From assembly GCA_024103355.1 (NCBI GenBank), contig JAGFIU010000043.1, positions 2,102 through 66,101 on the forward strand: DNA of 64,000 bases, written 5' to 3'. The stretch's first letter is position 1; every line of letters begins with the position of its first letter. Positions 7,806 through 41,810 of this stretch are shown here, one piece after another. Under the pieces are notes generated by a model. The model had not been told where the DNA came from and searched no databases. It saw nothing but the letters and a program-made list of their open reading frames with translations. Position numbers and translations under genes: made by a program. The DNA comes from Bacteroidota bacterium (GTDB lineage: Bacteria; Bacteroidota; Bacteroidia; NS11-12g; UBA955).

Positions 7806-7829
7806 TTTTCAAATCATTTTAAGTGTGAA

Positions 7830-9185: not shown

Positions 9186-9212
9186 TGTATATCGAATGAA
9201 AAATTTTAAAAA

Positions 9213-12371: not shown

Positions 12372-12405
12372 TTAGTTTCTATGAAATGATTAGTTGATAA
12401 TTATA

Positions 12406-18510: not shown

Positions 18511-18522
18511 TGTTATTAATTG

Positions 18523-20343: not shown

Positions 20344-20393
20344 ATATATTGTCTAAAATAATTGTTTCTAATAAGTTTAAGATAGTCTTTGAT

Positions 20394-22211
20394 TTAATAA
20401 ATTACTGTAGGCGGCAGTCCGTCTTCGCCCATATTATGTGCTTTTGTCACATTATAATAAAACTGCTTCATGTCCCAAGCTGAAGTAGGGCAACGCTCCG
20501 CACATAATCCACAATGCAGACAGACGTTTTCATCTTTGACCATGATTCTACCTGTTTTTACTTTGTCTGACACATAAAGACTTTGGTCAGTATTTAATGC
20601 GGGCATTGTCAACTTAGCGCGCATTTCTCCTTCGTCCTCTTCATTGAAGGTAAATGTAATACAATCCGTAGGGCAGACATCTACACAAGCATCACACTCA
20701 ATACATAAGTTTTCTTCAAAAACTGTTTGCATATCACAGTTGAGACAACGTTCTGCTTCTTTGAATGCTTCTAATTCATCAAAACCCAACTCCACTTCTT
20801 TTTTAATATTATTTAGCGTCTCAGACTTGTCTGCTTGTGGTACGATATATCTTTTGTCATTCACAACCTGACTATCATAACTCCATTCATGAATACCCAT
20901 CTTCATACTGTGCAGATTCACAAATGGAGACGGTCTGTCTTGTTTAATATTTAGACCTTCACACAACAGATGTATGGAAATAGCAACTTGATGTCCTTGG
21001 GCAACAGAGGTAATAATATTTTTAGGACCTAAAGAAGCATCACCGCCAAAAAAGACTTTTGGATGTGTTGAGGCAAAAGTTTTGGCATCCAAAATCGGCA
21101 TTCCCCATTCATTAAATTCTATTCCCAAATCACGTTCAATCCAGGGAAAGCTATTTTCCTGACCTATCGCCACTATGGCATCATCTGCTTCAAAAAAAAC
21201 ATCGGGCTCTCCGGTTGGTATTAATTTTCTTTTTCCTGTATCATCATAAACAGCCTTTACTTTTTCAAACATCATTCCCTGCAATTTTCCATCTTTTACT
21301 ACAAAGGATTTGGGAACATGATTATCAAAAATAGGGATATCTTCATGTAGTGCATCTTCAATTTCCCACTCTGAAGCTTTCATTTCAGATTTCGGACTTC
21401 TAACCACAACCTTTACATCCGTTCCGCCCAATCTTCTTGCAGTTCGGCAGCAATCCATTGCGGTATTTCCTCCACCCAAAACCAAAACTCTTTTTCCTAT
21501 TGATTTTGTATGTTCAAAAGCCACACTTGCGAGCCAATTGATACCCACATGAATATTTTCTTTGGCATCCCATCTCCCTGGCAAGTCGGGCAAATCGCGT
21601 CCTCTGGGAGCACCCGTACCTACATAAATAGCGTCATAATCTTTTTCAAGCATCTCTTTCATTGAAGACACATAATGATTAAAATGGGTATGGATACCTA
21701 AATCAAGAATATATCCAACCTCCTCGTCCAACACTTCATCCGGCAGTCTGAAAGAAGGAATTTGGCTGCGCATAAATCCTCCGCCTTTTGATTGGTCATC
21801 AAAGAGATGAATTTCATAACCAATTGGTGCGAGGTCTCGAGCAACGGTCAAAGAAGACGGACCTCCTCCAATCAACGCAATTTTTTTCCCGTTAGGTGGA
21901 AACGGGCCCTGAGGCATCATTCTTTTTACATCCTCCTTGTGGTCAGCTGCCACTCTTTTGAGTCTGCAAATTGCAACAGGCTTTTCTTCAACACGTCCAC
22001 GTCTGCATGCAGGTTCACATGGCCTATCACAAGTTCTGCCCAAAATCCCGGGAAACACATTGGAATCCCAGTTTACCATATAGGATTCACTGTAACGCCC
22101 TTGGGCAATCAGTCTTAAATACTGAGGAATCGGAGTGTGCGATGGACAAGCATATTGGCAATCCACCACTTTATGAAAGTATTCTGGATTCTTGGTATCA
22201 GTAGGTTTCAT
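20394..22211 (-). CDS. GltD-family NAD(P)H-dependent FAD/Fe-S oxidoreductase with a C-terminal 2x[4Fe-4S] ferredoxin domain
   Basis: 605 aa. The N-terminus has GltD-type Cys clusters (CPSHTP..CDRPCEPAC) and a Rossmann motif (IALIGGGPSSLTVARDLA). The C-terminus has CIECDACVDVCP and CLHCGLCAERCP. It lies 50 bp upstream of the second korA paralog on the same strand. Confidence 0.65.
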   Translation of the reverse strand: MKPTDTKNPEYFHKVVDCQYACPSHTPIPQYLRLIAQGRYSESYMVNWDSNVFPGILGRTCDRPCEPACRRGRVEEKPVAICRLKRVAADHKEDVKRMMPQGPFPPNGKKIALIGGGPSSLTVARDLAPIGYEIHLFDDQSKGGGFMRSQIPSFRLPDEVLDEEVGYILDLGIHTHFNHYVSSMKEMLEKDYDAIYVGTGAPRGRDLPDLPGRWDAKENIHVGINWLASVAFEHTKSIGKRVLVLGGGNTAMDCCRTARRLGGTDVKVVVRSPKSEMKASEWEIEDALHEDIPIFDNHVPKSFVVKDGKLQGMMFEKVKAVYDDTGKRKLIPTGEPDVFFEADDAIVAIGQENSFPWIERDLGIEFNEWGMPILDAKTFASTHPKVFFGGDASLGPKNIITSVAQGHQVAISIHLLCEGLNIKQDRPSPFVNLHSMKMGIHEWSYDSQVVNDKRYIVPQADKSETLNNIKKEVELGFDELEAFKEAERCLNCDMQTVFEENLCIECDACVDVCPTDCITFTFNEEDEGEMRAKLTMPALNTDQSLYVSDKVKTGRIMVKDENVCLHCGLCAERCPTSAWDMKQFYYNVTKAHNMGEDGLPPTVIY

Positions 22212-22593: not shown

Positions 22594-24033
22594 ATGGCGT
22601 ACGAACAAGACTTGCAAGAGTGGATAAAAGCAGAAAAAGCGGCAATCGAACTCATACATGTAACCGGCAATTTATGGTTTGAGAAATCTGTAGAATTGGT
22701 AATATTCCGTAATCAGGTAGTTGACCGGAGTGCCAGTCAAATTCTAAGTTTAATTCAATATGCAAAAGAGATTGTAAAGAAACCAATAAATATCTTTGAC
22801 GCTCTGCTTGTTGCAAAAGAAATGCTTTCCTTCGAGTTATCCCCTTCACGTATTGACCTCGGAAGACTTACTTATGAATGGTTTCTCGAAAGAGAAAAGT
22901 ATGGTAATATAAAAGAATTTGTATCTGACAAATTAGCAACCTTCATTGGGAAGGACAAGAAAAATTTAGTCCCAAAAGATGTGGTTCTGTATGGGTTTGG
23001 TCGAATCGGTCGTATTCTTGCCCGTGAATTTATTATTCAAGCAGGTAAGGGAGAACAACTTAGACTTCGCGCTATAGTTACACGAGATAAAACAGATGAG
23101 GATTTAATCAAACGTGCAGCATTATTGCGCACAGACAGCGTACATGGCCCTTTCCCAGGAACAATTATTGAAGATATTCAAAATCGTACTCTGATTATCA
23201 ATGGCCATACCGTTCACATGATTTCTGCCAAAACTCCGGAAGAAATTGATTATACAAAATACGGAATCAATAATGCACTACTAATAGACAATACCGGTGT
23301 GGCAAGGGACAGAGAGGGTTTGAGCAAGCACTTATTATCAAAGGGTATCGACAAAGTATTGTTGACAGCACCCGGGAAAGGCGACATTCCCAATATTGTT
23401 TATGGAATCAACCATGCAAACCATGTCAAAGATGAGCGAATATTCTCTGCTGCATCATGCACAACCAACGCAATCGTGCCTATTCTTGCTGTTGTAAACA
23501 ACACATTAGGTATTGAACGCGGACACATTGAAACTGTCCATGCCTATACAAATGACCAAAACTTGTTAGATAATTACCATAAAAAATACAGAAGAGGTCG
23601 CTCAGCAGTGCTCAACCTTGTTATTACAGAGACAGGTGCTGCAAAAGCAGTTTCTAAGGCAATACCTGAACTCGAAGGCAAATTAACCGGTAATGCAGTA
23701 AGAGTGCCTACCCCAGATGTGTCTTTGGCAATACTTAACCTTACATTAAACAAGACAACAGACAAAGAAAGCATCAACGGGATTTTGAAAGATGCAGCAT
23801 TAAAAGGTGATTTAGTAGAACAGATTCTTTATTCATACAGCAATGAGTTGGTTAGTTCAGACCTTGTTGGCTGCCCACAAACAAGTATTGTTGACAGTCC
23901 TGCCACACTGATTAGCAAAGATGGCAAGAATGTAGTGCTCTATATATGGTATGACAACGAATACGGATATAGCCGACAAGTGGTTAGATTAGCAAAATAT
24001 CTATCCAATGTTATTCGTCTGACATACTATTAA
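22594..24033 (+). CDS. GAPDH-family NAD(P)-dependent dehydrogenase, long form with an extra N-terminal domain of about 120 aa
   Basis: 479 aa. It has a Rossmann motif (LYGFGRIGRILAREF) and the catalytic SCTTN signature (SAASCTTNAIVPIL). The GAPDH-like core is preceded by an unrecognised extension of about 120 aa. Confidence 0.7.
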   Translation: MAYEQDLQEWIKAEKAAIELIHVTGNLWFEKSVELVIFRNQVVDRSASQILSLIQYAKEIVKKPINIFDALLVAKEMLSFELSPSRIDLGRLTYEWFLEREKYGNIKEFVSDKLATFIGKDKKNLVPKDVVLYGFGRIGRILAREFIIQAGKGEQLRLRAIVTRDKTDEDLIKRAALLRTDSVHGPFPGTIIEDIQNRTLIINGHTVHMISAKTPEEIDYTKYGINNALLIDNTGVARDREGLSKHLLSKGIDKVLLTAPGKGDIPNIVYGINHANHVKDERIFSAASCTTNAIVPILAVVNNTLGIERGHIETVHAYTNDQNLLDNYHKKYRRGRSAVLNLVITETGAAKAVSKAIPELEGKLTGNAVRVPTPDVSLAILNLTLNKTTDKESINGILKDAALKGDLVEQILYSYSNELVSSDLVGCPQTSIVDSPATLISKDGKNVVLYIWYDNEYGYSRQVVRLAKYLSNVIRLTYY

Positions 24034-24049: not shown

Positions 24050-24973
24050 ATGACAATCCGAGTCGAGAACCTGACTAAGATATATGGACCCCAAAAAGCG
24101 GTTGATAATATCAGTTTTGAGCTTAAGAAAGGCCAAATAGTAGGTTTTTTAGGACCTAATGGAGCAGGCAAAAGCACCACAATGAAAATGCTTACAGGCT
24201 TTATTCCTCCCAGTTCGGGAAATGCCTATATTGACAATATCAATGTGGAAGAACAACCTCTGATAACCCGCTCAAGGATTGGTTATTTACCCGAGCACAA
24301 CCCGCTTTACTTGGATATGTATATACGGGAGTATCTGCGTTTTATGGCGGAGATAAACAACGTGAAAAATCCCAAAAAGAGAACGGAGGAATTGATAGAA
24401 CTCACGGGTTTAACCTTGGAGAGGAAAAAGAAAATAGGACAACTCTCAAAAGGATATCGCCAGCGTGTGGGATTGGCACAAGCATTGATTCATAACCCTG
24501 ATGTATTAATCTTGGATGAACCAACTTCAGGCTTAGACCCCAATCAAATCGGAGAAATCAGAAAACTCATTCTGGAAATCGGTTCAGAGAAAACAGTTTT
24601 ACTTTCTACTCATATAATGCAAGAGGTAGAAGCGATTTGTCAAAGGACAATCATCATAAACCGAGGTAAGATTGTGGCAGATGCAGCAACAACTGAATTG
24701 GGCAAGAGAAATGATACAGATATTGTTATTTATGTTGAGTTTTCCAAAGAGATTTCAGAGTCAGACTTGCGCAAGATTCCCGAAGTAAAAAATGTTTCCA
24801 AAGGCTCTCAACCCAATTCATGGCATATCAATACTACCGAATCTCAGTCATGTAAAATTGCTCTCAATAAACTGATAGCAGGTGTTGGCGGGTATATTTT
24901 AGAACAGAAAGAAGAAAAACAAAGTTTAGAAGATATTTTCCAAAAACTAACTCGGAATGTGGACGATTTATAA
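24050..24973 (+). CDS. gldA: ABC transporter ATP-binding protein, GldA-like (gliding motility)
   Basis: 307 aa with Walker A (GPNGAGKST), the signature LSKGYRQR and Walker B (LILDEP). It is collinear with gldF/gldG-like genes through overlapping stop/start codons. Confidence 0.65.
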   Translation: MTIRVENLTKIYGPQKAVDNISFELKKGQIVGFLGPNGAGKSTTMKMLTGFIPPSSGNAYIDNINVEEQPLITRSRIGYLPEHNPLYLDMYIREYLRFMAEINNVKNPKKRTEELIELTGLTLERKKKIGQLSKGYRQRVGLAQALIHNPDVLILDEPTSGLDPNQIGEIRKLILEIGSEKTVLLSTHIMQEVEAICQRTIIINRGKIVADAATTELGKRNDTDIVIYVEFSKEISESDLRKIPEVKNVSKGSQPNSWHINTTESQSCKIALNKLIAGVGGYILEQKEEKQSLEDIFQKLTRNVDDL

Positions 24974-25691
24974 AAAAGAAATCAGAAGTTTTTTAAGCTC
25001 ACTCATTGCTTATGTAGTGATTGCAGTCTTTTTAATTGTAACCGGTATGTTCACTTGGTTGTTCAAAGACACCAGCGTTCTAGACAGTGGCTATGCAAAC
25101 CTTGACCCACTGTTTTCGATCGCACCGATTATTTTTATCTTTTTGGTTTCAGCAATTACCATGCGTAGTTTTTCTGAAGAGCGCAAGAGCGGCACTATTG
25201 AAACTCTGACCACAAGACCTGTTTCAGATATGTCAATCATAATGGGTAAATATTTTGCAGGACTAACCTTGGTATTATTTTCCATACTTCCAACCCTGCT
25301 CTATTATTACTCCGTAAACAAATTATCTATTAATCCCGAACAGACCGGTATTGACAAAGGAGCAACCTTAGGTTCCTATATCGGCTTATTATTACTTGGG
25401 GCGGTATATGTAGCTATTGGCACATTTGCCTCTGCATTGAGCGACAATCAGATTATTGCCTTTTTATTGTCAATGTTCCTATGCTTCTTTTTCTTCATTG
25501 CATTTGACTTTCTTTCGGATTTAGAGTTTTTGAAAAACTCTGATTTTTCAACAGAATGGCTCGGTATCAACTACCACTATCGTTCAATCAGTAAAGGAGT
25601 AGCAGACACCAGAGATTTAATTTACTTTCTGTCTTTGACCATTTTATTTCTTGGTTTCACTAAATTTATTTTTGGCAGCCGTAAGTGGTAA
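24957..25691 (+). CDS. gldF: ABC-2 type permease, GldF-like
   Basis: 244-aa six-TM ABC-2 permease. It overlaps gldA by 17 nt and gldG by 7 nt. Confidence 0.6.
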   Translation: MWTIYKKEIRSFLSSLIAYVVIAVFLIVTGMFTWLFKDTSVLDSGYANLDPLFSIAPIIFIFLVSAITMRSFSEERKSGTIETLTTRPVSDMSIIMGKYFAGLTLVLFSILPTLLYYYSVNKLSINPEQTGIDKGATLGSYIGLLLLGAVYVAIGTFASALSDNQIIAFLLSMFLCFFFFIAFDFLSDLEFLKNSDFSTEWLGINYHYRSISKGVADTRDLIYFLSLTILFLGFTKFIFGSRKW

Positions 25692-27484
25692 TCAATATGA
25701 GTAAGAAAAGAACACATCGAATTAAGAGTTTAATTGACCTTACGATTGTAATTGCAATCGTTGTGATTGCAAACCTTCTTTCTGCACAGTATTATACCAA
25801 GTTTGACCTTACCAAAGAGAAGCGATACACCTTGAGTGAAACATCCAAAAAACTTGCTAAGAGTGTAAATGACTATATATACATCAAAGTGTATTTGAAT
25901 GGAGAGTTAAGTTCAAAGTTTAAACAACTCAAAAATGCCACATTGGACATGCTGACAAACTTTAGGGAAGCATCCGGGAACAAGATTGAATATGAATTTA
26001 TTGACCCATTTGCAGGCAAGGACAACAAAGAGAAGCAGCAGATTCTACAAGATTTTGAACAAAAAGGCATTCCTCCGTACGATGATGTTGATGATGAAGA
26101 TATAGAATCACAAAAGCGCAATTTGATTATTCCGGGTGCTGAAGTATTTTACGGGACAGGAAAGAGTTTTGTAATCAATCTTCTCAAGACCGAATTGGGA
26201 CAAGCCAATGAAGAAAACATCAACCAATCCATTGAAAATCTAGAATACGAAATAGCACATGCCATTCGCAAATGTAAGGCAGACCAAAGTAAACGTATTG
26301 GATTTATAATAGGTCACGGAGAATTGAACGAACTACAACTGTACGATCTTAAAAAAGAGCTTGGCAGTTTTTATCGTTTGGACAATCTCAATATTGACCT
26401 TCGAGATTCAGCAGCCATTGCACTCTATGCAGACAAATTCACTGAAAATGATGAAGAGAATGCAAAGATTATCCTAAGCGGTTTGCAGAATCGTATTAAT
26501 CAATATGATGCAATTGTAGTTGCCAAGCCCCGTGTCGATTTGACACGTGAAGAAGCATTTCTAATTGACCAGTACATGATGCAAGGTGGCAAAAGCCTAT
26601 GGTTTATTGATGCACTACAAGCTGAAATGGATTCAATGAGCAAAACCGGCAGAATGGTTGCCGTTGATTACCCTTTAGAAAACCTGCGAGAGTTGCTTTT
26701 TCACTACGGAGTTAGAGTGAATGTGGATTTACTGCAAGATCTTCGTCGTTGTAATGACATTGCATTACGCGATCCATATTCCGCCAATAGCTATCGCAAT
26801 TTCCCATGGGTATATTTCCCTGTATTTACCGCACATCCGACATTATCCAAACATCCTATTAACCGTAATATCGAAGGAGTTTGGTCTCAATTTGGTGGAA
26901 CGATTAAGATATTAAACAAGGACAACATAAAGGCAACACCCCTGCTCATTAGTTCTGATTTAACTAAAATTTCCAATGCACCTGCACTCGTTGAGTTCAG
27001 TATTATTGATAAAATACGGATGAATGACAGAACCTTTTTAGCAACTTTTAATTCAGGGCCTCAGGTTGCAGGGGTTTTGTTAGAAGGTACATTCAAAACA
27101 GCCTTTGCACGCAGAAATGTCCGGTCCGATTTACCATTTATAGAAAGTGGAAAAGGCAGTATTATCGTTATTGCAGATGGAGATATTGCCAGGAATCATG
27201 TCAGCAGCCAAGGGGGGTATCTTGAACTTGGAAAGGATTTTATTACAGGAAGATTTTTTGGAAATAAAAAATTCTTGTTGAACTGTTTCGATTACTTACT
27301 TGATGATTCCGGATTAATCGAAATACGCTCTAAAGAAATCATACTGCGTTTGCTTGACAAAGAAAAAGTGAAAGAGGAGCGAACCTATTGGCAATTTTTT
27401 AATCTCGGGTTTCCGGTATTATTAATTCTCTTATTTGGGGTTGTTAATGCCTTGTTGAGAAGAAGAAAATATGCGCACACTTAG
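25685..27484 (+). CDS. gldG: GldG-like ABC-associated gliding motility auxiliary protein
   Basis: 599 aa with an N-terminal TM, a large extracytoplasmic domain and a C-terminal TM (..GFPVLLILLFGVVNALLRRRK). The size and topology match GldG. Confidence 0.6.
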   Translation: MVINMSKKRTHRIKSLIDLTIVIAIVVIANLLSAQYYTKFDLTKEKRYTLSETSKKLAKSVNDYIYIKVYLNGELSSKFKQLKNATLDMLTNFREASGNKIEYEFIDPFAGKDNKEKQQILQDFEQKGIPPYDDVDDEDIESQKRNLIIPGAEVFYGTGKSFVINLLKTELGQANEENINQSIENLEYEIAHAIRKCKADQSKRIGFIIGHGELNELQLYDLKKELGSFYRLDNLNIDLRDSAAIALYADKFTENDEENAKIILSGLQNRINQYDAIVVAKPRVDLTREEAFLIDQYMMQGGKSLWFIDALQAEMDSMSKTGRMVAVDYPLENLRELLFHYGVRVNVDLLQDLRRCNDIALRDPYSANSYRNFPWVYFPVFTAHPTLSKHPINRNIEGVWSQFGGTIKILNKDNIKATPLLISSDLTKISNAPALVEFSIIDKIRMNDRTFLATFNSGPQVAGVLLEGTFKTAFARRNVRSDLPFIESGKGSIIVIADGDIARNHVSSQGGYLELGKDFITGRFFGNKKFLLNCFDYLLDDSGLIEIRSKEIILRLLDKEKVKEERTYWQFFNLGFPVLLILLFGVVNALLRRRKYAHT

Positions 27485-27591: not shown

Positions 27592-30500
27592 TTACCACCA
27601 TTGTGTATTATCACTCACATCAAATGCTGAAGCACGCTCTCTGCCTTCAACCTTAAACTCTTCGGATAATTCTTCTAAGTATTTCTCACGTCTCTCAGGG
27701 TTATCAATATTGACATGGTATTGAAAAGTATTACCCACAGGGTAAACTTTCCCATCCCTTACTTCAACAACAACAAGGGCGTAATATTGGAAATCTTTTG
27801 GTGCAAAATTACGAGATTCGGCACTTTTGGTACTTATATACTGATGAATCTCATAATAGAACAATCTAAATTGTTTCCCTTTTGAGTTGACTTGCTCTTG
27901 CGAAATCAGATTAAAAGTATCTTTTTCCAAATCAAATTTAGACCCTGAAAACTCATCTGTTCCATTGATTGTTATTCGGGCCAACATTTCATCATCCAAA
28001 TATTTAGTAGGTATAATATCGAGCCGACCAATATCTTCCATATTTTTATATAGGTTAAATAAATACTTTGGGTTAGAGGCTATTTTATCGACCAAAACCT
28101 TGTTTGGATTAAGTTTGTTAATTAACTGATATTTAACCATCATAATTTGATTAATTTCAGAAGTGATAGAGGTATCATAGCTTTTCACCAAATTAGCGAC
28201 CTCATTGTTTTTGACCTGAGGAAGGAGTAGCTTATATTTCTGTATCAATGTTTCGTTATAAACAGGTGAAGAATAGCTATTATCAGCCTCTCCCACTGCC
28301 TCATCCATTGCCTTGGATATATTATTTTTTTGCTCAAACGCAAGGTATTTCTTCAAGACAAACTCCGACTCTTCTAACAGTTTTGGTAAAAATGGCTCAT
28401 AAAAAGCACCATTAATAATCCCGCTATCAAGCATATTGGATAGGTCTCCTAATATATAGGACTTATACTCCTGAATATGCTCATAATCATACATTTGGGG
28501 GTACATCTGTTTCCACAATTGCATACTGTCATTTCTAAGAGGTGACCAGATATCACTATCACTAACCATCACATAAGGTAAATCTTCATGCATGATTTCC
28601 TTCAATGCATTGATTGCCTTAATATTCTTCTGCGCACAAATTACTTCGATAGCATTTAACTGAATTGGATAATTATTGGGATTATTCAGGTATAATCTTT
28701 TGGCAAACTCAATCAATTTATCATCCTTGAGTTCAGAAAGTTTATCAAGCAATATTTGTTGAACAAACTCTTGCCCCTTCTCTCTAAATGGATAAGTTTC
28801 GATTATTTGGATAACTCTATCAATGTTTGATTTATTGAGTTTTACGAATTCAACGGATGAGATAGCCTTGTTAAACCTGGCACTATCACCTGAAAACAAA
28901 TCATCTAAAAATAAATCACCCTTATTTTCAAAGATTGAAATGCCAAAAGTAGAATCAATAGGTTTAAAACTATTATAAAAAGAATCAATAAATGGTGATG
29001 ATCGATGGACAGAATCTACAAGGGTTCGTAATACATATTGTGCATCACCGCCCTCCTTGATTATATGTCTCAATTTGATAAGCCGCATACTTCCTGTGTC
29101 AGACAAATACAAATCCATGATATGAAGTCCATCCTTTTGGAACCGCACTTGAGAGGACACAGCTAATGTCATGTCTTTTGTTGACTTTCTTACAATCTCA
29201 TTAAAAAGGGAATCAACATCGGGGTAGTAGGTATATTGATGAAATTTTTCAAAAAACACTCTGATTCGTTCACCTGTTTCAGACAAATAAATATACACTT
29301 TTGAGAAGTCTTCATAGTCTTTCCGAGTTTCATAATATCCCAGATATCTTGCACTACTTTCATTGATATCCTTGGAAGTCAGTGTTGAAAAATATAATAA
29401 GGTATCAGTAAATCTCTCAAACGGTTTATGGTTCTCGAAAGGTTCAATTTTAAAGGAATTAAAGAATTTATTTGCGGCTCTTTTGTTCTTATGTGTTTTG
29501 GCTGCAAGTAAATAATAAAAGCCTCCGGAAATAAGCATCCTAAAATAGGTGATTTCACCGCTTTCTCCCGCTTTTGGAACTAGTGAAAAATCAAGACAAG
29601 GGAGTCCTTGCCATTTACCAAGTTTCTTATCTGCAACTTGTTTACTATGTTTTTTGGCAAGTTTTTCAGCGGTTCTTTCCAATTCAAAATTATCTTCTTC
29701 AATATAGTAGAAATCAATTAATACATTGCGTGTCAATAAAAACAAGCTATTTGTTTTGCTGTCATAACCTTGGAAAAGAGGTTGATTATAAACAGCCGAA
29801 ATCGGCAAATCTGAATCAAGCACATGCACAGGTGGCATTTCCACAGAAAATCCTCCATAGACATATTTTGTTCTTTTCCATTCTGTCTGTTTACTTTTAT
29901 CAATAAATTTCAATGTTGAGAAAATCGAATCAGACCAAGGTTCAATAAAATCACCTTTTCCACCCATTTTAAAAATGATAATTTCCAAAGGGGTAACAAA
30001 AATTTGATAGTGTTGCAAATCACCTGACTTTGTTCTGTTTTTTACTTCAATGCCTTTGTAAACACCATTCTTAATTCTTTGTTTTGACAATATTTTTCCG
30101 GGTATATTCTCGAAGAGTAGGCTGTCAATTTTATCAAGATAGATATCGGGTGTAATTTCCGACATTATACTAAAAGTGGCAATTTTGTTAACTGAAAAGA
30201 AGGAACCATTGGTCATCTCTGAACAAAGAAAATGAGTACCGCTGTATGGCAACTCATAGAGTTTAGCCGGCAGATTGATAGCAAACTGACTATCGGGAGA
30301 AACTTGTTTTGTGAGCGTCAAATTGGTTTTGAGTGAGTCATAATATTTTTTGGTTTCAGCCGCAATATCAGTTTTTGTAAAAATAACCGGTCTGACAGTG
30401 CACCCTTTTTTTCGCAAATATTCGATCACACCAAAGTCACCACCCAAATGCGCTGCTCCAACTCCGGCAAAGACAGAATGCCCTTTCATTAGAACAAACA

Positions 30501-31281
30501 TACTATCTGCCATCAAGCGATTGCGTTCATTGAGGAACCAATGGATATAATGGGGTGTTGAGAAGAGATTTTGCAGTTCAAGCACCAAGTCTAAATCTTG
30601 TTGACGATAAGCATCCTGAAATATTTCGCTTATGTCTTGAGTTTTCATTCGTTCTTCAAGCCACAAAGGGATAGGTTTTTCATCTTTTTTATTTTTTCTC
30701 TCTGTTTGAGCAATTCTTAGCAAGTCGTTTGTATGTTTAATATTTTCTAATCCAACCACTGTTCTTCCTGTCTTTGCACCTGCCATATAGATAAACATAT
30801 CGAGATAAGTATCTTCTTCAAAGTCTGCCATATACGGGTCACTTCTAAACTGTAGCGAATTAATCATTACGTCTCTGCTTGCTAAATAAGACCCAATCAC
30901 ATTATTTTGTGGAGGGTCTAAAGGAAATATTTTTTGATAAAAACCCTTGTCTGTATACGTATTAAATGGATAAGCACCAAAATACTCGGTGGCATATTTC
31001 AAATTCATTATTTCATCTAACCAGTTTGTGGGGTTTGATTCTAATGCAATAATATCAGCATGTTTTAGTCCTATAAAAAAAGTATCACTAAGATTAAACG
31101 CAAGTTTGCTGCTCACATGCATTGTTCCGTACAGATATGATTTTTGTCCGGGATTCTGGGGTGAGGTTACCTCCCACAACAAGGACTGATATTTTTTCTC
31201 GCTTGTTTGTGCATTAAGGAAGTCTATCGAATGGCTAAAATAAAATGCAGCTATTGAGAACAGAATAACAATTTTTTTCAT
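27592..31281 (-). CDS. Large secreted protein with an N-terminal TIKI/TraB/GumN-family domain and an unassigned C-terminal region of about 900 aa
   Basis: 1229 aa with a signal peptide. GumN-type motifs are LLWEVTSPQNPGQKSYLYGTMHV and VFAGVGAAHLGGDFGVIEYLRKKGCTVRPV. The rest has no recognised domain. Confidence 0.5.
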   Translation of the reverse strand: MKKIVILFSIAAFYFSHSIDFLNAQTSEKKYQSLLWEVTSPQNPGQKSYLYGTMHVSSKLAFNLSDTFFIGLKHADIIALESNPTNWLDEIMNLKYATEYFGAYPFNTYTDKGFYQKIFPLDPPQNNVIGSYLASRDVMINSLQFRSDPYMADFEEDTYLDMFIYMAGAKTGRTVVGLENIKHTNDLLRIAQTERKNKKDEKPIPLWLEERMKTQDISEIFQDAYRQQDLDLVLELQNLFSTPHYIHWFLNERNRLMADSMFVLMKGHSVFAGVGAAHLGGDFGVIEYLRKKGCTVRPVIFTKTDIAAETKKYYDSLKTNLTLTKQVSPDSQFAINLPAKLYELPYSGTHFLCSEMTNGSFFSVNKIATFSIMSEITPDIYLDKIDSLLFENIPGKILSKQRIKNGVYKGIEVKNRTKSGDLQHYQIFVTPLEIIIFKMGGKGDFIEPWSDSIFSTLKFIDKSKQTEWKRTKYVYGGFSVEMPPVHVLDSDLPISAVYNQPLFQGYDSKTNSLFLLTRNVLIDFYYIEEDNFELERTAEKLAKKHSKQVADKKLGKWQGLPCLDFSLVPKAGESGEITYFRMLISGGFYYLLAAKTHKNKRAANKFFNSFKIEPFENHKPFERFTDTLLYFSTLTSKDINESSARYLGYYETRKDYEDFSKVYIYLSETGERIRVFFEKFHQYTYYPDVDSLFNEIVRKSTKDMTLAVSSQVRFQKDGLHIMDLYLSDTGSMRLIKLRHIIKEGGDAQYVLRTLVDSVHRSSPFIDSFYNSFKPIDSTFGISIFENKGDLFLDDLFSGDSARFNKAISSVEFVKLNKSNIDRVIQIIETYPFREKGQEFVQQILLDKLSELKDDKLIEFAKRLYLNNPNNYPIQLNAIEVICAQKNIKAINALKEIMHEDLPYVMVSDSDIWSPLRNDSMQLWKQMYPQMYDYEHIQEYKSYILGDLSNMLDSGIINGAFYEPFLPKLLEESEFVLKKYLAFEQKNNISKAMDEAVGEADNSYSSPVYNETLIQKYKLLLPQVKNNEVANLVKSYDTSITSEINQIMMVKYQLINKLNPNKVLVDKIASNPKYLFNLYKNMEDIGRLDIIPTKYLDDEMLARITINGTDEFSGSKFDLEKDTFNLISQEQVNSKGKQFRLFYYEIHQYISTKSAESRNFAPKDFQYYALVVVEVRDGKVYPVGNTFQYHVNIDNPERREKYLEELSEEFKVEGRERASAFDVSDNTQWW

Positions 31282-31422: not shown

Positions 31423-33753
31423 TTATTCCTTCACAATCTTGTTGACTTGTCCGGCTATGTTTATGAAGTAAATTCCGCTTACTAATCCTGACAAATCAAT
31501 TTCTAGTATTCTTTTTTCTAATTTGCCTTGCATAACCAATCTCCCTTGTACATCGGTAATCTTATATTCCTCTCCTACTTTCCCCTCGATTTTTGTCAAT
31601 CCTGTTGTCGGATTGGGATATATTGTAAATGGTTGGTATAAATTAATCGGAAATTCAACAAATCTTATTGGACTCAACTCACTTTTGCCATCATAATCTA
31701 CCTGGCGAAGGCGATAATAATTTAGTTTCTTTGGGTTGGAATCAACTAATTGATAATAACTCATTGAATAGATTGTTCCTTTTCCTTGAACAATTCCAAT
31801 AGATTCCCAATTTATTCCATCGCTATTTCTCAATACTTCAAAATGACTATTGTTTACCTCTTGAGCAGTTTGCCATGTAAGCTCTACCCTTGTATTACTA
31901 AAGTCTGGCGTTGCCTGAAAATCAATGAGCTCCACAGGCAACGGAACTGGACCACCCCCTATTGCAAAAGGTGAAAAGGCGCCATTGTAGCCAGTATGCG
32001 TCAAAGTTGTCCCACTTGCACTGCCACTGCCCGATGTCGCTATCTCCCATGCACTTATGCCTGAATTGTAGTGGTTGAGTGTGGGTGTTGCCAACAACGC
32101 TGACTCCTCTCCCGAATTCCAATAAAATTTAAAATCTACTCCACTGCCTCCATTCGCACTGGCTTTGTCTATATCCCATGTACGTTTTACGTGAGGGGGT
32201 ATCAATACACTCCCCGTCAATCCATCTTCATAAGCCTCATCCAATATCCTGATACTAAAAACATCGGCAGAACCTGTGTTGTTTTTTATCTCAATAGGAT
32301 TGTATGCACTGTTACCTACAGGGAACAACAAGGTAGCGCCATTAGCCACATTCATCTTGAGTTTACCGGTTCCGGTTGTTTTCACATAACCTGTTCCGAT
32401 ATTGCTTAGTCCGGTCACTGTCAGATTGTAATTTCCTAAGACAATCTTCTTACCCGAATTAATCATATTGATTACTCCCACTGTTCTGTCTTGGTCTAAT
32501 TCCAAATCCCTGACTACAGTACTGTGAAATTTAAAATTATCACCGGATGCAGGTAAGCCTCCCTTGTACCAATTTCCCGACTTTGACCAATCATTGTCGG
32601 TTGTACCTATCCACTCACATGGGCAATTGGAAACATCTTTACCATTATCACTAATCGTCCAACTCTTGGTAGTGGCTAAATAGTCACGAGCAGATTGAGC
32701 ATATGCTGCGTATTTGATACTTGCAGCTCCTAAGGTTATATTGCTTGGAGCTGTACCTCCCGTTGCCCAACCTATCAAGGTAGCTCCATAATTTGAACAA
32801 TCCATTCCTGAATTACTAAACATACTTACTAAACTTGTTACACTTAACAAATTCCAATTACCTAAATTCTGATTGAAATTACTCGCATTATAAAACATAA
32901 AATTCATATTGGTAACCGCGCCCGTACTCCAACTACTTATATTTCCATTGAAAGAACTTGCATTGCGAAACATAGCACTCATATTAGTTACCTTTGACAC
33001 ATCCCAAGAATTCAAATCTTGGTTAAAACTACTAGCATCATTAAACATTGAATTCATATTGGTGACAGAACCCGTACTCCAAGCGTCTATATTTTTATTG
33101 AAAGAACTTGCATTGCGAAACATAGCACTCATATTAGTTACCTTTGACACACCCCAAGAATTCAAATCTTGGTTAAAACTACTAGCATCATTAAACATAT
33201 AACTCATATCGGTCACAGAGTCAGTTTTCCAACTGCTTATATTTCCATCGAAGGAACTTGCTGAAGAAAACATAGAACTCATATTAGTTACCTTCGACAC
33301 ATCCCAAGAATTCAAATTTTGATTAAAATTACTTGCAATATAAAACATAGCATTCATATTGATTACTGAGCCCGTATTCCAATTGCTAATATCCGCATTG
33401 AAGGAACTTGCTGAAGAAAACATAGAGCTCATATCGGTTATACCTTCTGTATGCCAATTCCAATTTGCGCTTGAACCTTTTAGATTTGTGCAAGATGCAA
33501 ACATATTTGAAAGGTTTGTAACTTTTGCCAAAACCGGAGTATCTGTGGCGGTAATATCCATTCGCGAGCATCCATAAAAAGATTTCACAAAACTCGACCA
33601 TGTACTATCTCCCCATTGGGTGATTAGCTTGAGCGAATCTTTCTGTCCTCCATTATTAAAATAGATTTGCGGGAAAGACCCGTGAATCTCAACCTTATAT
33701 AATTTATCCGCGGTTCCAGTTGTAACAGTGAACGGGCCCGAGCCGGATAACAC
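31423..33753 (-). CDS. DUF285/BspA-type 26-residue-repeat surface protein with a T9SS type-A C-terminal sorting domain. The ORF as called starts at an internal GTG.
   Basis: About 10 tandem 26-aa repeats (..SVTNMSAMFRNASSFNQDLNSWDVSKV..). The C-terminal Por-secretion tail is YPNPTTGLTKIEG...GIYFINIAGQVNKIVKE. The same frame stays open upstream to an in-frame TAA at 33865..33867. Confidence 0.7.
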   Translation of the reverse strand: MLSGSGPFTVTTGTADKLYKVEIHGSFPQIYFNNGGQKDSLKLITQWGDSTWSSFVKSFYGCSRMDITATDTPVLAKVTNLSNMFASCTNLKGSSANWNWHTEGITDMSSMFSSASSFNADISNWNTGSVINMNAMFYIASNFNQNLNSWDVSKVTNMSSMFSSASSFDGNISSWKTDSVTDMSYMFNDASSFNQDLNSWGVSKVTNMSAMFRNASSFNKNIDAWSTGSVTNMNSMFNDASSFNQDLNSWDVSKVTNMSAMFRNASSFNGNISSWSTGAVTNMNFMFYNASNFNQNLGNWNLLSVTSLVSMFSNSGMDCSNYGATLIGWATGGTAPSNITLGAASIKYAAYAQSARDYLATTKSWTISDNGKDVSNCPCEWIGTTDNDWSKSGNWYKGGLPASGDNFKFHSTVVRDLELDQDRTVGVINMINSGKKIVLGNYNLTVTGLSNIGTGYVKTTGTGKLKMNVANGATLLFPVGNSAYNPIEIKNNTGSADVFSIRILDEAYEDGLTGSVLIPPHVKRTWDIDKASANGGSGVDFKFYWNSGEESALLATPTLNHYNSGISAWEIATSGSGSASGTTLTHTGYNGAFSPFAIGGGPVPLPVELIDFQATPDFSNTRVELTWQTAQEVNNSHFEVLRNSDGINWESIGIVQGKGTIYSMSYYQLVDSNPKKLNYYRLRQVDYDGKSELSPIRFVEFPINLYQPFTIYPNPTTGLTKIEGKVGEEYKITDVQGRLVMQGKLEKRILEIDLSGLVSGIYFINIAGQVNKIVKE

Positions 33754-33867
33754 TCCTGACCAACCATTGTTAGAGGCATTCCCTACCTCTTCCCAATAGA
33801 CCTTAAAGTTATAACTGCTTCCTCTCGTAGGGATAATTATCTGTCCACTACTGTTGGCTCGCCATTA

Positions 33868-33975
33868 TACAATAAACGGATCTAATGCCCTTGCATCTGA
33901 TAGTTTTAGTAACAAGAGCAATAACAATCCAAATCGAAAAAAAGTGCGATGATTAAATAACCAAATTATTTTCAT
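33868..33975 (-). other. 36-codon signal-peptide ORF in frame with the BspA-like CDS and separated from it by a single TAA
   Basis: MKIIWLFNHRTFFRFGLLLLLLLKLSDARALDPFIV, then TAA, then the same frame continues as WRANSSGQIIIPTRGSSYNFKVYWEEVGNASNNGWSG into the 31423..33753 ORF. Confidence 0.45.
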
Positions 33976-34138
33976 AAAGTCTATATTTTAGGATTGCGCA
34001 AATATAATCTCACTTTTATTACACAATATTTTATAAATACTTTTTTTTAATACCTTTTTAGTCATCCCAATAGTTAAATTAATAAAACGAGTCCAAACAT
34101 AGCCAAGCATAGTTAGAGCAGTTATGCTTTATTGAAAA

Positions 34139-34176
34139 AGAGCCATTAGGGAAGCTTCCCTAATGGCTCTTTTTTA
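34139..34176. terminator. Bidirectional rho-independent terminator
   Basis: Perfect 32-nt palindrome agagccattagggaagcttccctaatggctct, flanked by A5 upstream and T6 downstream. Confidence 0.75.
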
Positions 34177-34196
34177 TTCTTTTATTTATAAATGAA

Positions 34197-34319
34197 TTAT
34201 TCCTTCACAATCTTGTTGACTTGTCCGGCTATGTTTATGAAGTAAATTCCGCTTACCAATCCTAATAATTCAACAAAAGCTATCGTAATGTTTGTGCATG
34301 AAATATGGAAAAACAAACC
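34197..34319 (-). pseudogene. Orphan 3' remnant of a T9SS type-A CTD gene (last 40 codons plus stop, no start codon)
   Basis: Translates as GLFFHISCTNITIAFVELLGLVSGIYFINIAGQVNKIVKE*. Bases 34197..34256 are identical to 31423..31482, the 3' end of the BspA-like gene. An upstream in-frame TAA lies at 34320..34322 and no ATG is present. Confidence 0.55.
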
Positions 34320-34341
34320 TTAAAGCCATAGAGATAAGCCC

Positions 34342-34349
34342 TATCTTTG
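34342..34349 (+). promoter_or_regulatory. Candidate -7 promoter element (TAnnTTTG) for the 2475-aa gene
   Basis: The sequence tatctttg lies about 22 nt upstream of ATG 34372. Confidence 0.3.
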
Positions 34350-34368
34350 CACTCCGCATTCGTGTAAG

Positions 34369-37300
34369 GTGATGGCTCTAAGAAAAACATTTATTTTGTT
34401 ACTATTATCAAGTATTCTTATTGGCATCAGCCGGCAAGCAAAGGCACAGTGCGTTGCTGATTACAGCATCATTTCTCGCAGTTGCGACAAAGACACCGTT
34501 CATTTTTCCTTTACCGGCAACGGGAAAAAGTTTCAATGGGACTTTGATGATCCTGCTTCTGGTGTTAGAAACTCTGACACTCTCAGCAATCCAAAACATC
34601 AATTTACTTCAGCAGGTTCCTATTATGTCAGATTGGTTGTTTTTGACTCCGCATGCACTGATACCGTTACCAAATTAGTACAGATATACACAAATCCAAC
34701 CATTGCTTATTCATACTCTAATAATTGTAAAAATCTGATTTCCAAATACAATTCTTCGATTACCATTGATTCGGTTGATTCCATCAGACAGATTTATTGG
34801 TTTTTGAACAATGTACTTATTGATTCAGGAAGCAACATCTCTCACATATTTTCAGACACTGGGATAATAAACCTATCCACAGTTGTTGTTACCGGGGAGG
34901 GATGTACTGACAGCTTTAATAAACCTATAAAGGTATTCCCGGCCCCTGTTATAGAATCAGACAAGTCAAGTGCATGTGAAGATAAGGATATTAATTTCAA
35001 TCTCAAATCCGGTTTTGTACCTGAAATTAAAAATTACAAATGGAATTTCGGTGACGGCTCAATCAGCAGTCAAGCCTCACCTAAATATCAATTCTCTAAT
35101 GGTGGGCTTTACCCTGTTTCGCTTTTGCTAACCTATTCAGACAGCAGCTCCTGTTTATCAAACGCTGATTCAATCAAGATAACAAACAAACCCAATACCG
35201 CATTTCGTCTTTTGAGTGATAGCGTTCAATGTTTTCAAGGAAATCAATTTTGTTTTGAATTTTTGGGCAGGGAAAAGAATTTGAGTTATCGTTCTGTCAT
35301 ATTTGGTGATGGCAATAAGAACAACACTTTCCCATTGACAGACAGCACACTTTATTACTCATACAACGACAGTTTAGGCAGAGTTTATTCAATAACTTAT
35401 GAAGCTATTGACTCAAACGGTTGTTCAAACACAACAACCATTGACAGCTTAATAACACTTCACCCTAAGATCAATTTATTATTTGGTTACAGTAGAACTC
35501 TTGGATGTTTCAGCACTCCTGTATCATTCACAAATTACAGCAACACCACACCTCCTAGCATTATAAAATTCAAATGGGATTTTGGTGACAGCACCCTTGA
35601 CTCTACATCGTGGAATCCAAGTCATACTTATACACAAAACGGAATATTCTCGGTTTCGCTCGAAGTTCTGAGTGACAAGGGTTGTCAAGTGAAAACAACT
35701 TACAACAAAATCATCGAAAATGTAAACTTCAAAGCAGATACTCACTTGGACAGTGTCATTAGTTTTTGTAGAAGCGACAACAAATTTTTCTATAAACAAA
35801 CCCCGATACTCGGTGCCAGCGTACGATGGTATTGGGGAGATGGTGACACCTCTTACACATGGAGTGTAAACAAACATTACAATAACCCGGGTACATATTA
35901 TCCAAGAATAAGAATCTGGGCTTCTAACTGTATTGTTGATACTGTTTTCGATACGATAACCATTACAGGGCCTCGTGCTTTAGCAAGCAATATAATCAAC
36001 CGATATCAATGTCAAATCAAAGACACTATATACTTTACAAACAGCAGTTTATTCGATTTTAACAAAAGCAGAAGTACATTTTGGGATTTTGGTGATATTT
36101 ATGCACCAAGTTGTACGACAAACCTCGCAAAGGGTATCAATGTAGGTATGAATTGTCGATATAGCACCGACAGCATTTTAACCCAACACTATTACACCCC
36201 CGGCAAAGAGCAGTGTTACTATACAAAATTGGTTGTAAGTGATTCCATAATAGGTTGTGCGGACTCAACGTATATAAGCCTTCCGCTAACAGCACCCAAA
36301 GCGGATATAGACCTCTTAGCCACTCCTCCTCGATTAGGAATGAGTCTTAACAAAAATAGAACTTGCCTGAGTGAAGAAGGAGACTATGTCAATGTCTTAG
36401 TTCTAAACTTAAATAACACACAGCCTGCTTGTGCCAGACAACGATGGTGGGTGATGTGGGACTCTCTTGGTGCACGCCAATCAGGCAGCTTTGATTCACA
36501 TTGGGAATCTTATGCCGACTCGCATTACTATAGTTTTGCAAATAAACCTGCCGACACAAATGGATATGTAACTATCGGATTGATTATTGAGAATGGTAGC
36601 GACTCTAGCAACAACGTTTGCAGAGATACGGCATGGTATCACCATTTTTTGAAATTTGAAATTTATGACCCTGAATTTGTTTCAGACTATGACTCAACTG
36701 TACAGTACTGCAAAGGTTCAACTTTTACTTTTCGTTTAAAGGATACAACACAAAAAGCACTTTCTAAAGTAATATGGGATTGGGCTGACGGGAGTTTGTC
36801 TCAACTAACATCAGGAAACCTTACGGCACCTATCAAACACACATTCTATAAGCCCGGAATATACAAAGTTATTGTAACTGTGATTACTGACTCCGGTTGT
36901 ATTGCAACTTATTCAAAGAGAATCGAAGTAGGCTATAACATCAATTTTGGCGTAAGTAATGTTTATTCGTCTTCGGGGCAACGATTTTGTGAGAATACCA
37001 AAATACCCTTATCGTTTGATGTCGGTTATATTGGCACTACACGCAATGAATGGCATGATACCATGCGTTTGAAAGCCGGTAAAGAAAAAATCAGGTGGGA
37101 TATGGGAGACGGTCTTGGTTATCAGGACTTGGGATTTCCGCCTTTTTCCTATCAATACAACAAAGGAGGTTATTATAAAATATCCTTGATAGCTGAAGAC
37201 AGTGTAGGCTGTATGGATACAATGACAGTTCCCGATGCCATTCTTATTACTCATATCAAGTCAAAAATTACAACCTCACAAGACAGCTTTGTTTGTGCAC

Positions 37301-40300
37301 AAGGGATTCAATTCAATTCTAATGTTTCTCAATATGACAGCACAAGCACAGTTCCTCAAGGCAGTGCGGAAACTATTACCTATCGTTGGGAATTTGCTCC
37401 GGGCATACCCTACAACACGTTATCCGATCCTTTTGTTCTGTTGAAAGAAGGTGATTACAATGTTAAACTAAAGGTTACCAATACAACGGGATGTGAAGAC
37501 TCCTCTTTTAAAAGTATAAGCATCATCGGTCCAAAAGCAGAGTTTGTATTTCTTTCCGACTCTATCGGTTGTCAACCCCTGGAGGTTACTTTCAAAAACA
37601 AAAGTAAAGGTGCCACAAATTATATTTGGAGATTCAAAGACAGCAGTGGAAATGTGTTGAACACCGTCTCCTCCGGCAATGTTAGCTTTACTTATCCTCA
37701 GTTTGGAAAATATTATCCGTCTCTTACTGTTCAAGGAACTTATATCAAAAATGGAGTAAGTATTACCTGTTCCAATACTTTTCCTGACTCTATTCCTAAG
37801 CCATTTAGGGAAATTACAGTATTGGAAATCCCCAAACCTGATTTCACCCATGTTACCAACTGTTTCAGCAAAACCACACAGTTTACTAACAAGACTTATA
37901 CAGGTAGTTCAACTCTGAACTCTGTTTATTGGGATTTTGGAGACGGCAGCACTTCTACTGACAACAATCCTTCTCATCAATACAGTGATACCGGAAGATA
38001 TACAATAACATTAATTGCTTATTCTGCAAACGGCTGCTCAGATACATTAAAACGAATGATTGTCATATCCCCTACTCCAATCCCCAATTTTAATTTTACA
38101 AACCAATGTGCCGGAGTTCCCATTCAATTCAAAGATTCAACAAAAACGTTTAATGATGTTATTGTCAATTGGAGCTGGAGTTTTGGCGATAGCACTTTCA
38201 GCAATCTGAATATTGAAAATAAAAGCTATGCAAAAGGAGGTTCTTACAATGTTAAACTGGTCGTTACCAATATGGCAGGTTGTTCCGATTCTGTTTCTAA
38301 AATAGTAAAGGTTCATTATAAACCTCTTGTTAATTTCTCGGTTCCACATACTTGTTCCCATCAAGACTTGGCAATTTCAAATCTGAGCAGTGTTGCAGAC
38401 ACTACACTCTCTTATCAATGGAATTTTGCAGACGGGACATATTCTACAGATTTTGCTCCCTCAAAATCATATACAAATAACGGCAATTACAAAATCAAAC
38501 TGCAAGCATTGAGTGGCTTTGGCTGCGTTGATTCTATTACAAAAAACATTCAAATAAACCCAACGCCTTATAGCAATTTTAATATCAATAGTGCTACACA
38601 GTGTTTTGCCGAACATGAGTTTGTGTTTAGCAATACAACATCACTTGTATCAGGTACATTTTCTTCACTCTGGAAGTTTGGAGATGGGAATACGAGCGTT
38701 ATCAAATCTCCCACACATCAATATACAAGCATAGGCTCCTATGCCATTGACTTGATTACCACCTCTGATTTTGGTTGTAAAGACACCATTTCTAAAAGCG
38801 TGACAGTGCAATCCAATCCATCAGCCAATTTCACTATTGACAAAGTTCAACAATGTTTGCTCGGCAATGCCTTTACTTTTACTGATATTACTGGTACTCC
38901 TAACAGAACATGGCAAATCAAAGGAATTAACTATGCAGATAGTGTACTCAAATACAGTTTTGTTGACACCGGAGTTCACACAATTCGCATGGTTGCCATA
39001 TCAACAAATACTTGTACTGATACAATCTATCGAACGGTAGAAGTGCTTCCCATGCCGATTGCAAAAATTGGTGTAAACAGCCCGGGACAATGCGTAAACA
39101 ACCAAAATTTCTCCTTTTCCGACTTAACAACACTTGCCAAATATCCATCATGGACTCCTTCTTGGGATTTCGGAAACGGGAAAACCGCTGGAATTTCCAA
39201 CCCGACCACAAGTTATGACACTGCCGGATTTTATACTGTTACGCTAAAAGTGCTTTCAAGCAAAGGTTGTGCTGATACCACTCAATACAAAGTTGAGGTT
39301 TATTCTAAACCAACACCTGATTTTGCTATCAATGATGACGAGCAATGTCAATTGAACAACTTGTTTGTGTTCACAAATAAGTCAAAAGTTGCAAAAGGCT
39401 CACTCTCTTATCAATGGACATTTGGTGATGGGGCAAGCAGTATTCTAACCAATCCAAAACACAGCTATACACTAAAAGGAAATTTACCTGTTAAACTCAT
39501 TACGACCAGTTCCTTAGGTTGTGTGGACTCGATTTCGCGAACCATTACTTTGCGAGCAAAACCAACCGCTTCAATAGCAGTAAACAAAGCACAACAATGT
39601 ATCAATCCCAATTTGTTCACTTTCAGCAGTAAGAGTCAAAGCAATGAGGGTTCTTTTGTTTCTTACGAATGGAACATTCCTTCACAGCCAATAAGCAGTT
39701 TGCAAACCAATGACACATTTTTCTATAGTTTTCCAAACTATGGAGCATTCCCTGTTCATCTCTATGTTACAACGAGTTTCGGCTGCGCTGATTCTACTCA
39801 AATGTCTGTTGAAGTTTATCCAAAACCCAAATCTTTGTTTTCTATCAATGATTCTACACAATGCCTTAACAAACAACTATTTTCTTTCAGCAACTTAAGC
39901 ACAATTCCCTACGGTACATTGAGCTATCAATGGACTTTTGGAGATGGCAAAGGCTCTACCGCTAAACATCCTTCTTATACCTTCAACAACGCTGATACTT
40001 TTATTGTAAAAATGATTGCAACCTCAAACAATAATTGCAAGGATACTACCTCTTTGCCCGTGATTGTATATCCCAAACCCTTTGTTAATTTTAACATCAA
40101 CGACTCAGGACAGTGTCTGACAGGTAATCTCTATGAATTAAACAATCTTAGCAACATTTCTTATGGCACTTTATCATATTTCTGGGATTTAGGAAATGGT
40201 AAAACATCAACTCAAAAAGACACACAAATCAGCTACAATGCTTATGGTACATATAAGATTTTATTACAATCAACCTCTAACTTTGGTTGTATAGATAGCG

Positions 40301-41796: not shown

Positions 41797-41810
41797 GAGT
41801 TGTAAGTTTC

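Follow-up and report, generated by a model that had tools for sequence, protein, structure and literature searches.

A long-form TraB/GumN family protein of Bacteroidota with a predicted TIKI-fold domain and a multidomain extension of about 900 residues

We analysed a gene encoding a 1229-residue protein in a 64,000-nucleotide stretch of DNA from a Bacteroidota bacterium of the NS11-12g lineage (assembly GCA_024103355.1, contig JAGFIU010000043.1, positions 2,102 to 66,101; this whole stretch is called the window below). We found that the protein, referred to here as the long TraB protein, is an ordinary member of a large Bacteroidota family of approximately 1200-residue, presumably exported proteins, in which an N-terminal TraB/PrgY/GumN domain with a predicted TIKI fold is followed by an extension of about 900 residues. 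With moderate confidence, we propose that it is a Sec-exported hydrolase, most likely a peptidase, whose extension would bind or enclose the substrate. The family already has a database name, taken from its N-terminal domain, and its architecture varies the TraB/TIKI theme in a way not described before. We found no paper on the long form in the literature searched, and we know of no earlier description of the domain composition of the extension.

The initial annotation, made from the sequence alone and without stating a strand, had described a 1229-residue open reading frame with a signal peptide and a TIKI/TraB/GumN domain, and each of these elements held up. The gene lies on the minus strand, where its 1229 codons run uninterrupted from ATG to stop, and the plus strand of the same interval is rich in stops. 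The N-terminus reads MKKIVILFSIAAFYFSHSIDFLNA, followed by QTSE; in it, a basic n-region leads into a hydrophobic core and then an Ala-Gln junction. Of 119 homologs, 112 have a small residue and then Gln at the predicted cleavage junction, as is described for substrates of signal peptidase I in Bacteroidetes. There is no Cys among the first 35 residues, and a lipobox-like pattern was found in just 2 of the 119 homologs; judged by its N-terminus, the long TraB protein is not a bacterial lipoprotein. Given the n-region, the core, the Ala-Gln junction, the conserved Gln at +1 and the lack of a lipobox, we predict that the protein is exported.

The Pfam family TraB_PrgY_gumN (PF01963) matched residues 34-298 over the full length of the profile (positions 1-263 of 263; E = 3.8e-25) with a score of 89.7 bits, against a curated cut-off of 26.8, and all 40 members of a set of deliberately divergent homologs (26-34% identity, alignment A3) likewise matched. 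The motifs G52-T-M-H55-V, G273-V-G-A-A-H278-L-G-G and L289-RKKGCTV296 are all present and, as claimed from the start, GumN-type motifs are confined to the first 300 residues or so. When we checked their conservation, both GxxH motifs proved invariant, and the residues G52, T53, H55, E81, E156, E179, R253, N254, G275 and H278 do not vary either in A3 or in an alignment of 120 full-length homologs (A1). Two outcomes had been named that would speak against the assignment, namely failure to align to TraB/GumN models and loss of conservation at the catalytic positions, and we observed neither. The predicted structure of the domain has the alpha/beta TIKI fold with a parallel beta-sheet core. The definition of the family by two GxxH motifs reportedly goes back to Sanchez-Pulido and Ponting and to Bazan and colleagues, both in 2013. 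In RRSP (DUF5 of MARTX toxins), Ras cleavage requires a set of two His and two Glu residues, and for Ere esterases and TIKI proteins it has been proposed that a His-Glu pair activates water (PMC6254334). By residue identity, the His/Glu (and Arg-Asn) set of the TraB domain is the constellation that defines catalytically competent members of the TIKI superfamily, and the domain is probably an active hydrolase.

TraB/GumN proteins normally comprise about 300 residues, and the long form had been regarded as unusual against that norm. This view had to be given up, as we found relatives in at least 556 species genomes in a scan of one genome per species. These genomes belong to Flavobacteriaceae, Crocinitomicaceae, Vicingaceae, Weeksellaceae-type genera, Chitinophagaceae, Saprospiraceae, Sphingobacteriales and metagenome-assembled genomes of Bacteroidales, and the orders represented include Flavobacteriales, Chitinophagales and Sphingobacteriales. 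A word-indexed search yielded 2385 relatives. The best 120, labelled "TraB/GumN family protein" or "YbaP (TraB family)" in the databases, are almost all 1160-1250 residues long; full-length homologs fall in this same range and cover 87-100% of the query. Among the matches listed, the closest relative is 74% identical and comes from a metagenome assembly (P0001), and the closest species-representative genome encodes a protein that is 49% identical (UBA6161); no identical sequence turned up in these collections. Among the matches listed, the lone label from outside Bacteroidota was that of a metagenome-assembled genome of the betaproteobacterium Methylophilus rhizosphaerae (locus L079, contig CALRQJ020000004.1), in which the neighbouring genes are Chitinophagales-like; either the contig is mis-binned or the genome is mislabelled, probably.

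The extension alone (residues 301-1229), when compared with 1.84 billion cluster representatives, matched 578 clusters defined at 50% identity (318 with E <= 1e-30). Within the best 150 of these 578 clusters, the match nearly always begins at about residue 295-350 of a protein of about 1200 residues, behind an N-terminal domain of about 300 residues; the shorter matches among them resemble truncated gene calls, and none places the extension behind another catalytic domain. Since these matches start behind an N-terminal domain of this length, the extension appears to be confined to the TraB architecture.

The initial annotation had also stated that the remaining 900 residues match nothing recognisable. 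At the level of sequence this was borne out, as residues 300-1229 gave no Pfam, NCBIfam or PDB sequence match when searched as part of the whole protein, as a profile of 120 sequences or as five separate segments. Searches of PDB sequences with the whole protein, the N-terminal domain alone and the 120-sequence profile returned just chance matches to the TGIF1 homeobox (E of about 0.6), and Pfam scans of the five segments at E values up to 10 gave noise, such as Thioredoxin_8 at 0.056 and CH at 0.014. A weak match to DUF4240 (E = 0.035) inside the HEAT region was not reproduced and was rejected. At the level of structure, on the other hand, folds could be assigned. We used the 120-sequence alignment to build an AlphaFold2 model of residues 30-1229. 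Its mean predicted local distance difference test score (pLDDT) was 89.4 and its predicted template modelling score (pTM) 0.84, and it divides the extension into three PsbP/Mog1-like domains, an alpha-solenoid that is probably of the HEAT/ARM type, a small alpha/beta domain and a short tail (Table 1). Since such values were obtained for a protein of six domains, the model points to domains that are packed in a defined, compact way and not strung like beads.

Foldseek searches with the extension gave matches with a probability of 1.0 and target-normalised template modelling scores of 0.45-0.61. The PsbP/Mog1-like domains have the antiparallel sheet flanked by helices that is typical of this fold, with significant structural similarity to it, and the order of strands and helices is common to all three in the model. 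Profile comparison by hhalign related the first domain to the second with a probability of 92.7% (E = 4e-7); the second and third were related weakly (43.9%, E = 2.4e-4), so the assignment of the third relies mainly on the model. The HEAT/ARM type of the solenoid is a probable assignment, the sequence itself scoring under the Pfam threshold. We place high confidence in the structural annotation overall, which runs from the TraB domain through the three PsbP-like domains, the helical solenoid and the small alpha/beta domain to the tail.

Conservation runs along the entire extension. Gly, Pro, Asp, Glu and aromatic residues account for most of its invariant positions, as in the FENIPGK motif, the acidic stretch of the second PsbP/Mog1-like domain and F772-xPxDTxxG780; residues N358, E391, G395, D523, E528, D530, E533, D626, D728, Q874 and P902 are among those that do not vary. 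Neither A1 nor A3 contains an invariant set of His, Cys or Ser residues in the extension that would indicate a second active site, which suggests that it has no catalytic centre of its own. The tail is rich in aromatic residues: of 120 homologs, 112 have at least three Phe, Trp or Tyr among their last 10 residues, and 104 end in Tyr, Phe or Trp. Across these homologs (P0001-P0120), the conserved R-x-R-A is followed by endings such as ...TQWW, ...YYGY and ...FNWFNW. Docking, contact with a membrane and autoinhibition are possible roles of this tail.

Table 1. Features of the long TraB gene, its product and its surroundings (positions in the window; residues of the 1229-residue protein)
Feature	Position	Strand	Remarks
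Long-form TraB/GumN family protein, complete open reading frame	27592..31281	-	1229 residues plus stop; from open reading frame list and translation
Predicted Sec signal peptide, residues 1-24	31210..31281	-	predicted signal peptidase I cleavage ...LNA/Q25; no lipobox; read from sequence
TraB/PrgY/GumN (predicted TIKI-fold) domain, residues 34-298	30388..31182	-	PF01963
First GxxH motif, G52-T-M-H55	31117..31128	-	G52, T53, H55 invariant
Second GxxH motif, G275-A-A-H278	30448..30459	-	G275, H278 invariant
PsbP/Mog1-like domain 1, residues 324-454	29920..30312	-	conserved FENIPGK at 390-396
PsbP/Mog1-like domain 2, residues 469-608	29458..29877	-	acidic D523-FYYIEEDNFE-533; D523, E528, D530, E533 invariant in A1
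PsbP/Mog1-like domain 3, residues 611-770	28972..29451	-	most divergent copy; mainly from model
Probable HEAT/ARM-type alpha-solenoid, residues 788-1104	27970..28920	-	
Small C-terminal alpha/beta domain, residues 1122-1212	27646..27918	-	four antiparallel strands and a long helix
Disordered C-terminal tail, residues 1213-1229	27595..27645	-	starts with conserved R-x-R-A, ends ...TQWW; pLDDT < 50
Putative promoter element TAGATTTG	31307-31300	-	directly after palindrome, 19 nt before ATG; fits TAnnTTTG
Palindrome, 17-bp stem, 6-nt loop	31308-31347		between DUF285 gene and long TraB gene; unique in window
gldA/F/G-like ABC transporter genes	24050-27484	+	convergent with long TraB gene
DUF285 repeats and Por_Secre_tail	31423-33753	-	776 residues
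14 PKD domains and CHU_C	34369-41796		2475 residues
PKD and Por_Secre_tail	41811-46112		1433 residues

In the mechanism that we propose, the long TraB protein would be a soluble protein of the cell envelope, exported by the Sec pathway and most likely periplasmic. The TraB/TIKI domain would carry out the chemistry as a hydrolase, most probably a peptidase, and the extension may serve as a fixed accessory apparatus that recruits, holds or encloses the substrate for the TraB active site. We infer the catalytic activity, the peptide or protein nature of the substrate and the substrate-binding role of the extension from the conserved residues, the predicted folds and the analogies that follow. Three points favour a peptidase: peptides or proteins are the substrates of those members of the TraB/TIKI branch that have been characterised, tandem PsbP-like domains grip a protein partner in the type VI secretion system immunity protein Tli4/TplEi, and solenoids of the HEAT/ARM type act as scaffolds that bind proteins. 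The pheromone that PrgY counteracts is a peptide, and in other envelope proteins PsbP/Mog1-like folds are binding platforms for proteins, peptides or lipids. TIKI trims the N-termini of Wnt (PMC12329661), and the TIKI core of RRSP is inactive without its appended lobe (PMC6254334). The suggestion of a large exported protease, possibly a metalloprotease, is therefore kept in part: an exported hydrolase is the most reasonable assignment, but "metalloprotease" is too specific, since RRSP is metal-independent and the metal use of Ere is structural (PMC6254334). Within the superfamily, TIKI is reported to be metal-dependent, whereas the endopeptidase RRSP works without metal, and there are also esterases and members with no catalytic function (PMC6254334, PMC12329661).

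Comparison with described systems places the long TraB protein with TIKI1/2, PrgY, TraB, GumN, E. coli YbaP and TRABD by its full-length profile match, two GxxH motifs, conserved Glu and Arg-Asn residues and predicted TIKI fold, and it is probably exported, as are YbaP, GumN and TIKI. Unlike these proteins, which typically have about 260-400 residues and are single-domain or membrane-tethered, it carries the 900-residue extension with five further domains. Among TIKI cores with accessory domains, RRSP would be the closest mechanistic parallel; it would share the fold of the core, the His/Glu site and the need for an attached lobe, itself non-catalytic, to recruit the substrate (PMC6254334). 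On the other hand, sequence similarity between the two is lacking beyond the core, and the accessory lobe of RRSP lies at the N-terminus, is helical and targets membranes. RRSP also acts as a toxin in the host cytosol, and the Glu of its first motif (ExH) is Thr in the long TraB protein (GTMH). The PsbP/Mog1-fold proteins that we compared (PsbP/CyanoP, DcrB, LpqN, MTC28, Apa, the tandem-domain protein Tli4/TplEi and the Eag/SciW chaperones) are just 8-14% identical to the extension, which has no match to Pfam PsbP, DUF1795 or LpqN. Tli4/TplEi, in which tandem PsbP-like domains grip a partner, resembles what we propose for the extension. We know of no described case of a PsbP/Mog1 fold fused to a hydrolase. 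Unlike HEAT/ARM proteins such as E. coli YibA (Pfam HEAT_2), the solenoid is here one domain within a larger, presumably exported enzyme.

Several observations weigh against an exported peptidase. In the literature searched, no demonstrated substrate was found for the long family or for any bacterial TraB/GumN/YbaP protein. The TIKI fold also occurs in Ere esterases, in heme binding by ChaN and in structural roles, such as PMT C1/C2 and the TraB subunit of the Tetrahymena respiratory supercomplex, so residue conservation alone is no proof of peptidase activity. A periplasmic rather than surface location is a default assumption, and gene neighbourhood, described below, gives no consistent clue to function.

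If the protein is a hydrolase, the question arises whether its substrate is a peptide at all. Like Ere, and as has been suspected of the xanthan-cluster protein GumN, it could instead be an envelope esterase or other non-peptide hydrolase; its target would be a lipid, a glycolipid, a polysaccharide substituent or a small molecule, with the PsbP-like modules binding a hydrophobic or glycan ligand. Ere esterases belong to the TIKI superfamily and use the same His-Glu chemistry (PMC6254334). Nevertheless, we regard an esterase as unlikely, since the Pfam match is to TraB/PrgY/GumN and not to Erythro_esteras, the characterised members TIKI and PrgY have peptide or protein substrates, and solenoids and tandem claws of the kinds predicted here typically bind proteins.

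To compare gene neighbourhoods, we clustered all open reading frames of 84 related loci and found that recurrent neighbours are limited to one Flavobacteriaceae-type synteny block. The ferrochelatase gene hemH lies upstream and divergent from the long TraB gene in 45 of the 84 loci, all with this synteny, and hemA/hemCD lie 1-5 kb downstream in 23. In 33 loci, the next gene downstream, in the same orientation and mostly just 0-35 bp away, is AmiA-like (PF07313, formerly DUF1460); an AraC regulator lies further downstream in 24. Flavobacteriaceae loci of this kind include L003 (at 5494-6525 and 11467-12396), L007, L015, L018 and L022, with hemE/hemF further downstream too. Homologs of all these neighbours, and of MscS, which is likewise a neighbour in Flavobacteriaceae, are absent from the 64-kb window. 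The AmiA-like gene, possibly for an amidase of peptidoglycan recycling, and the long TraB gene probably form an operon in this one family. DUF1460 was reportedly described by Xu and colleagues in 2014 as a specific NlpC/P60 muropeptide amidase, and this link is the sole, and weak, hint at a substrate class, namely cell-wall peptides.

The hem genes bear on a further alternative, in which the long TraB protein would be a non-catalytic binding or scaffold protein, either a ChaN-like periplasmic binder of heme or another tetrapyrrole or a structural subunit of an envelope complex. The divergent hemH and the downstream hemA and hemCD fit such a role, but this synteny is confined to one family and missing from the window and from other lineages. 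Moreover, the full His/Glu/Arg-Asn set is invariant down to 26-34% identity, as expected of an enzyme, and to our knowledge ChaN does not use the GxxH/Glu motifs in binding heme. We consider a scaffold or heme-binding role improbable.

In the window, the long TraB gene lies between gldA/F/G-like genes and three genes for cargo of the type IX secretion system (T9SS), and the initial annotation had noted this location between a gld operon and a T9SS cargo island. The location was confirmed, but it carries no functional signal. The locus of the 74%-identical relative (L001) lacks the DUF285 cargo gene, pointing to a recent insertion or loss; there, the long TraB gene is separated from gldG by xseA, xseB and a DUF4256 gene. 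In Zobellia and Putridiphycobacter, the neighbours are entirely different. Genes for gldF and gldG were found nearby just in the window's own lineage and in one metagenome-assembled genome of Bacteroidales (L060), where they lie 1.7 kb downstream. ATP-binding cassette (ABC) ATPase genes beside Chitinophagales homologs clustered with GldA in a BLAST graph and were rejected as gldA because they encode double-ATPase proteins of 577-608 residues that are just 28% identical to GldA of the window. A functional linkage of the long TraB gene to the gld genes was likewise rejected, as it is convergent with gldG and its neighbourhood differs elsewhere.

We also followed up the question whether the C-terminus resembles a T9SS C-terminal domain, and it does not. 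Por_Secre_tail (PF18962), CHU_C (PF13585) and TIGR04183 gave no match at E values up to 1, nor any to the isolated C-terminus at values up to 10, and a profile of the C-terminal 130 residues compared with the C-terminal domains of the three neighbouring cargo proteins gave hhalign probabilities of 0.1-0.3%, against 95.7% for two of those neighbouring domains compared with each other as a positive control. Such a domain, characterised by an Ig-like beta-sandwich, is absent by sequence, profile and fold, and the long TraB protein is not type IX secretion cargo. The reading as a T9SS-secreted surface or extracellular protease that belongs functionally to the adjacent cargo island or gld genes, which its position in the window and in L060 had invited, is largely refuted by these comparisons, the convergent orientation and the unconserved neighbourhood, and retains hardly any credibility. 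In annotating the window, the long TraB protein should not be counted among the flanking T9SS cargo or gliding genes.

Upstream of the long TraB gene, the palindrome listed in Table 1 could be the terminator of the upstream gene, an operator or both. The element TAGATTTG adjoins it and fits TAnnTTTG, which is the Bacteroidetes -7 promoter consensus; we regard it as a putative promoter element. A scan for sigma-70 promoters and terminators was uninformative (17 sites against 17.5 expected), a likely reason being that sigma-70 is the wrong promoter type for Bacteroidota.

Other parts of the window contain several further features. A TonB-dependent receptor gene at 46184-48493 follows the three large T9SS cargo genes that stand in a row at 31423-46112. 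Directly upstream of the gldA-like gene, 22594-24033 (+) encodes a protein of 479 residues similar to glyceraldehyde-3-phosphate dehydrogenase, about 140 residues longer than the canonical enzyme, with an NAD-binding domain that starts at residue 129 and a gap between the N- and C-terminal domains. The interval 17458-22211 (-) is a ferredoxin-linked redox cluster, in which genes for the alpha and beta subunits of a 2-oxoacid:ferredoxin oxidoreductase (POR/POR_N, TPP_enzyme_C) adjoin a 605-residue fusion of Fer4_20, Pyr_redox_2 and two [4Fe-4S] modules; the genome encodes aerobic respiratory genes too. Among a long run of genes on one strand (285-14127, -) are those for a multiheme cytochrome c (12406-14127) and, at 9213-12371, a 1052-residue molybdopterin/4Fe-4S protein; the gene order of this run, of which two open reading frames were scanned, resembles that of alternative complex III (ActA, ActB and others) followed by oxidase-like genes.

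Returning to the exported hydrolase that we favour, a more specific form of it is possible, which we put forward tentatively. The long TraB protein may be a Bacteroidota-specific, self-contained processing enzyme of the envelope, in which three PsbP-like domains and a HEAT solenoid would form a claw around the TIKI site. The enzyme would trim or degrade a defined set of exported proteins or peptides, or else peptides derived from the cell wall, with the aromatic tail as a docking or autoregulatory element. Cell-wall-derived peptides are included because of the probable operon with the AmiA-like (DUF1460) amidase gene in Flavobacteriaceae. TraB/GumN/YbaP proteins are widespread in bacteria, with no substrate known outside the enterococcal pheromone system, and a processing enzyme of this kind, if true, would be the first assigned housekeeping function for any of them. 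Since the long form is conserved over its full 1200 residues in several orders with an intact active-site signature, it is a good entry point to the function of bacterial TIKI-fold enzymes, and the domain map presented here can guide the choice of residues for mutation and of modules for deletion.

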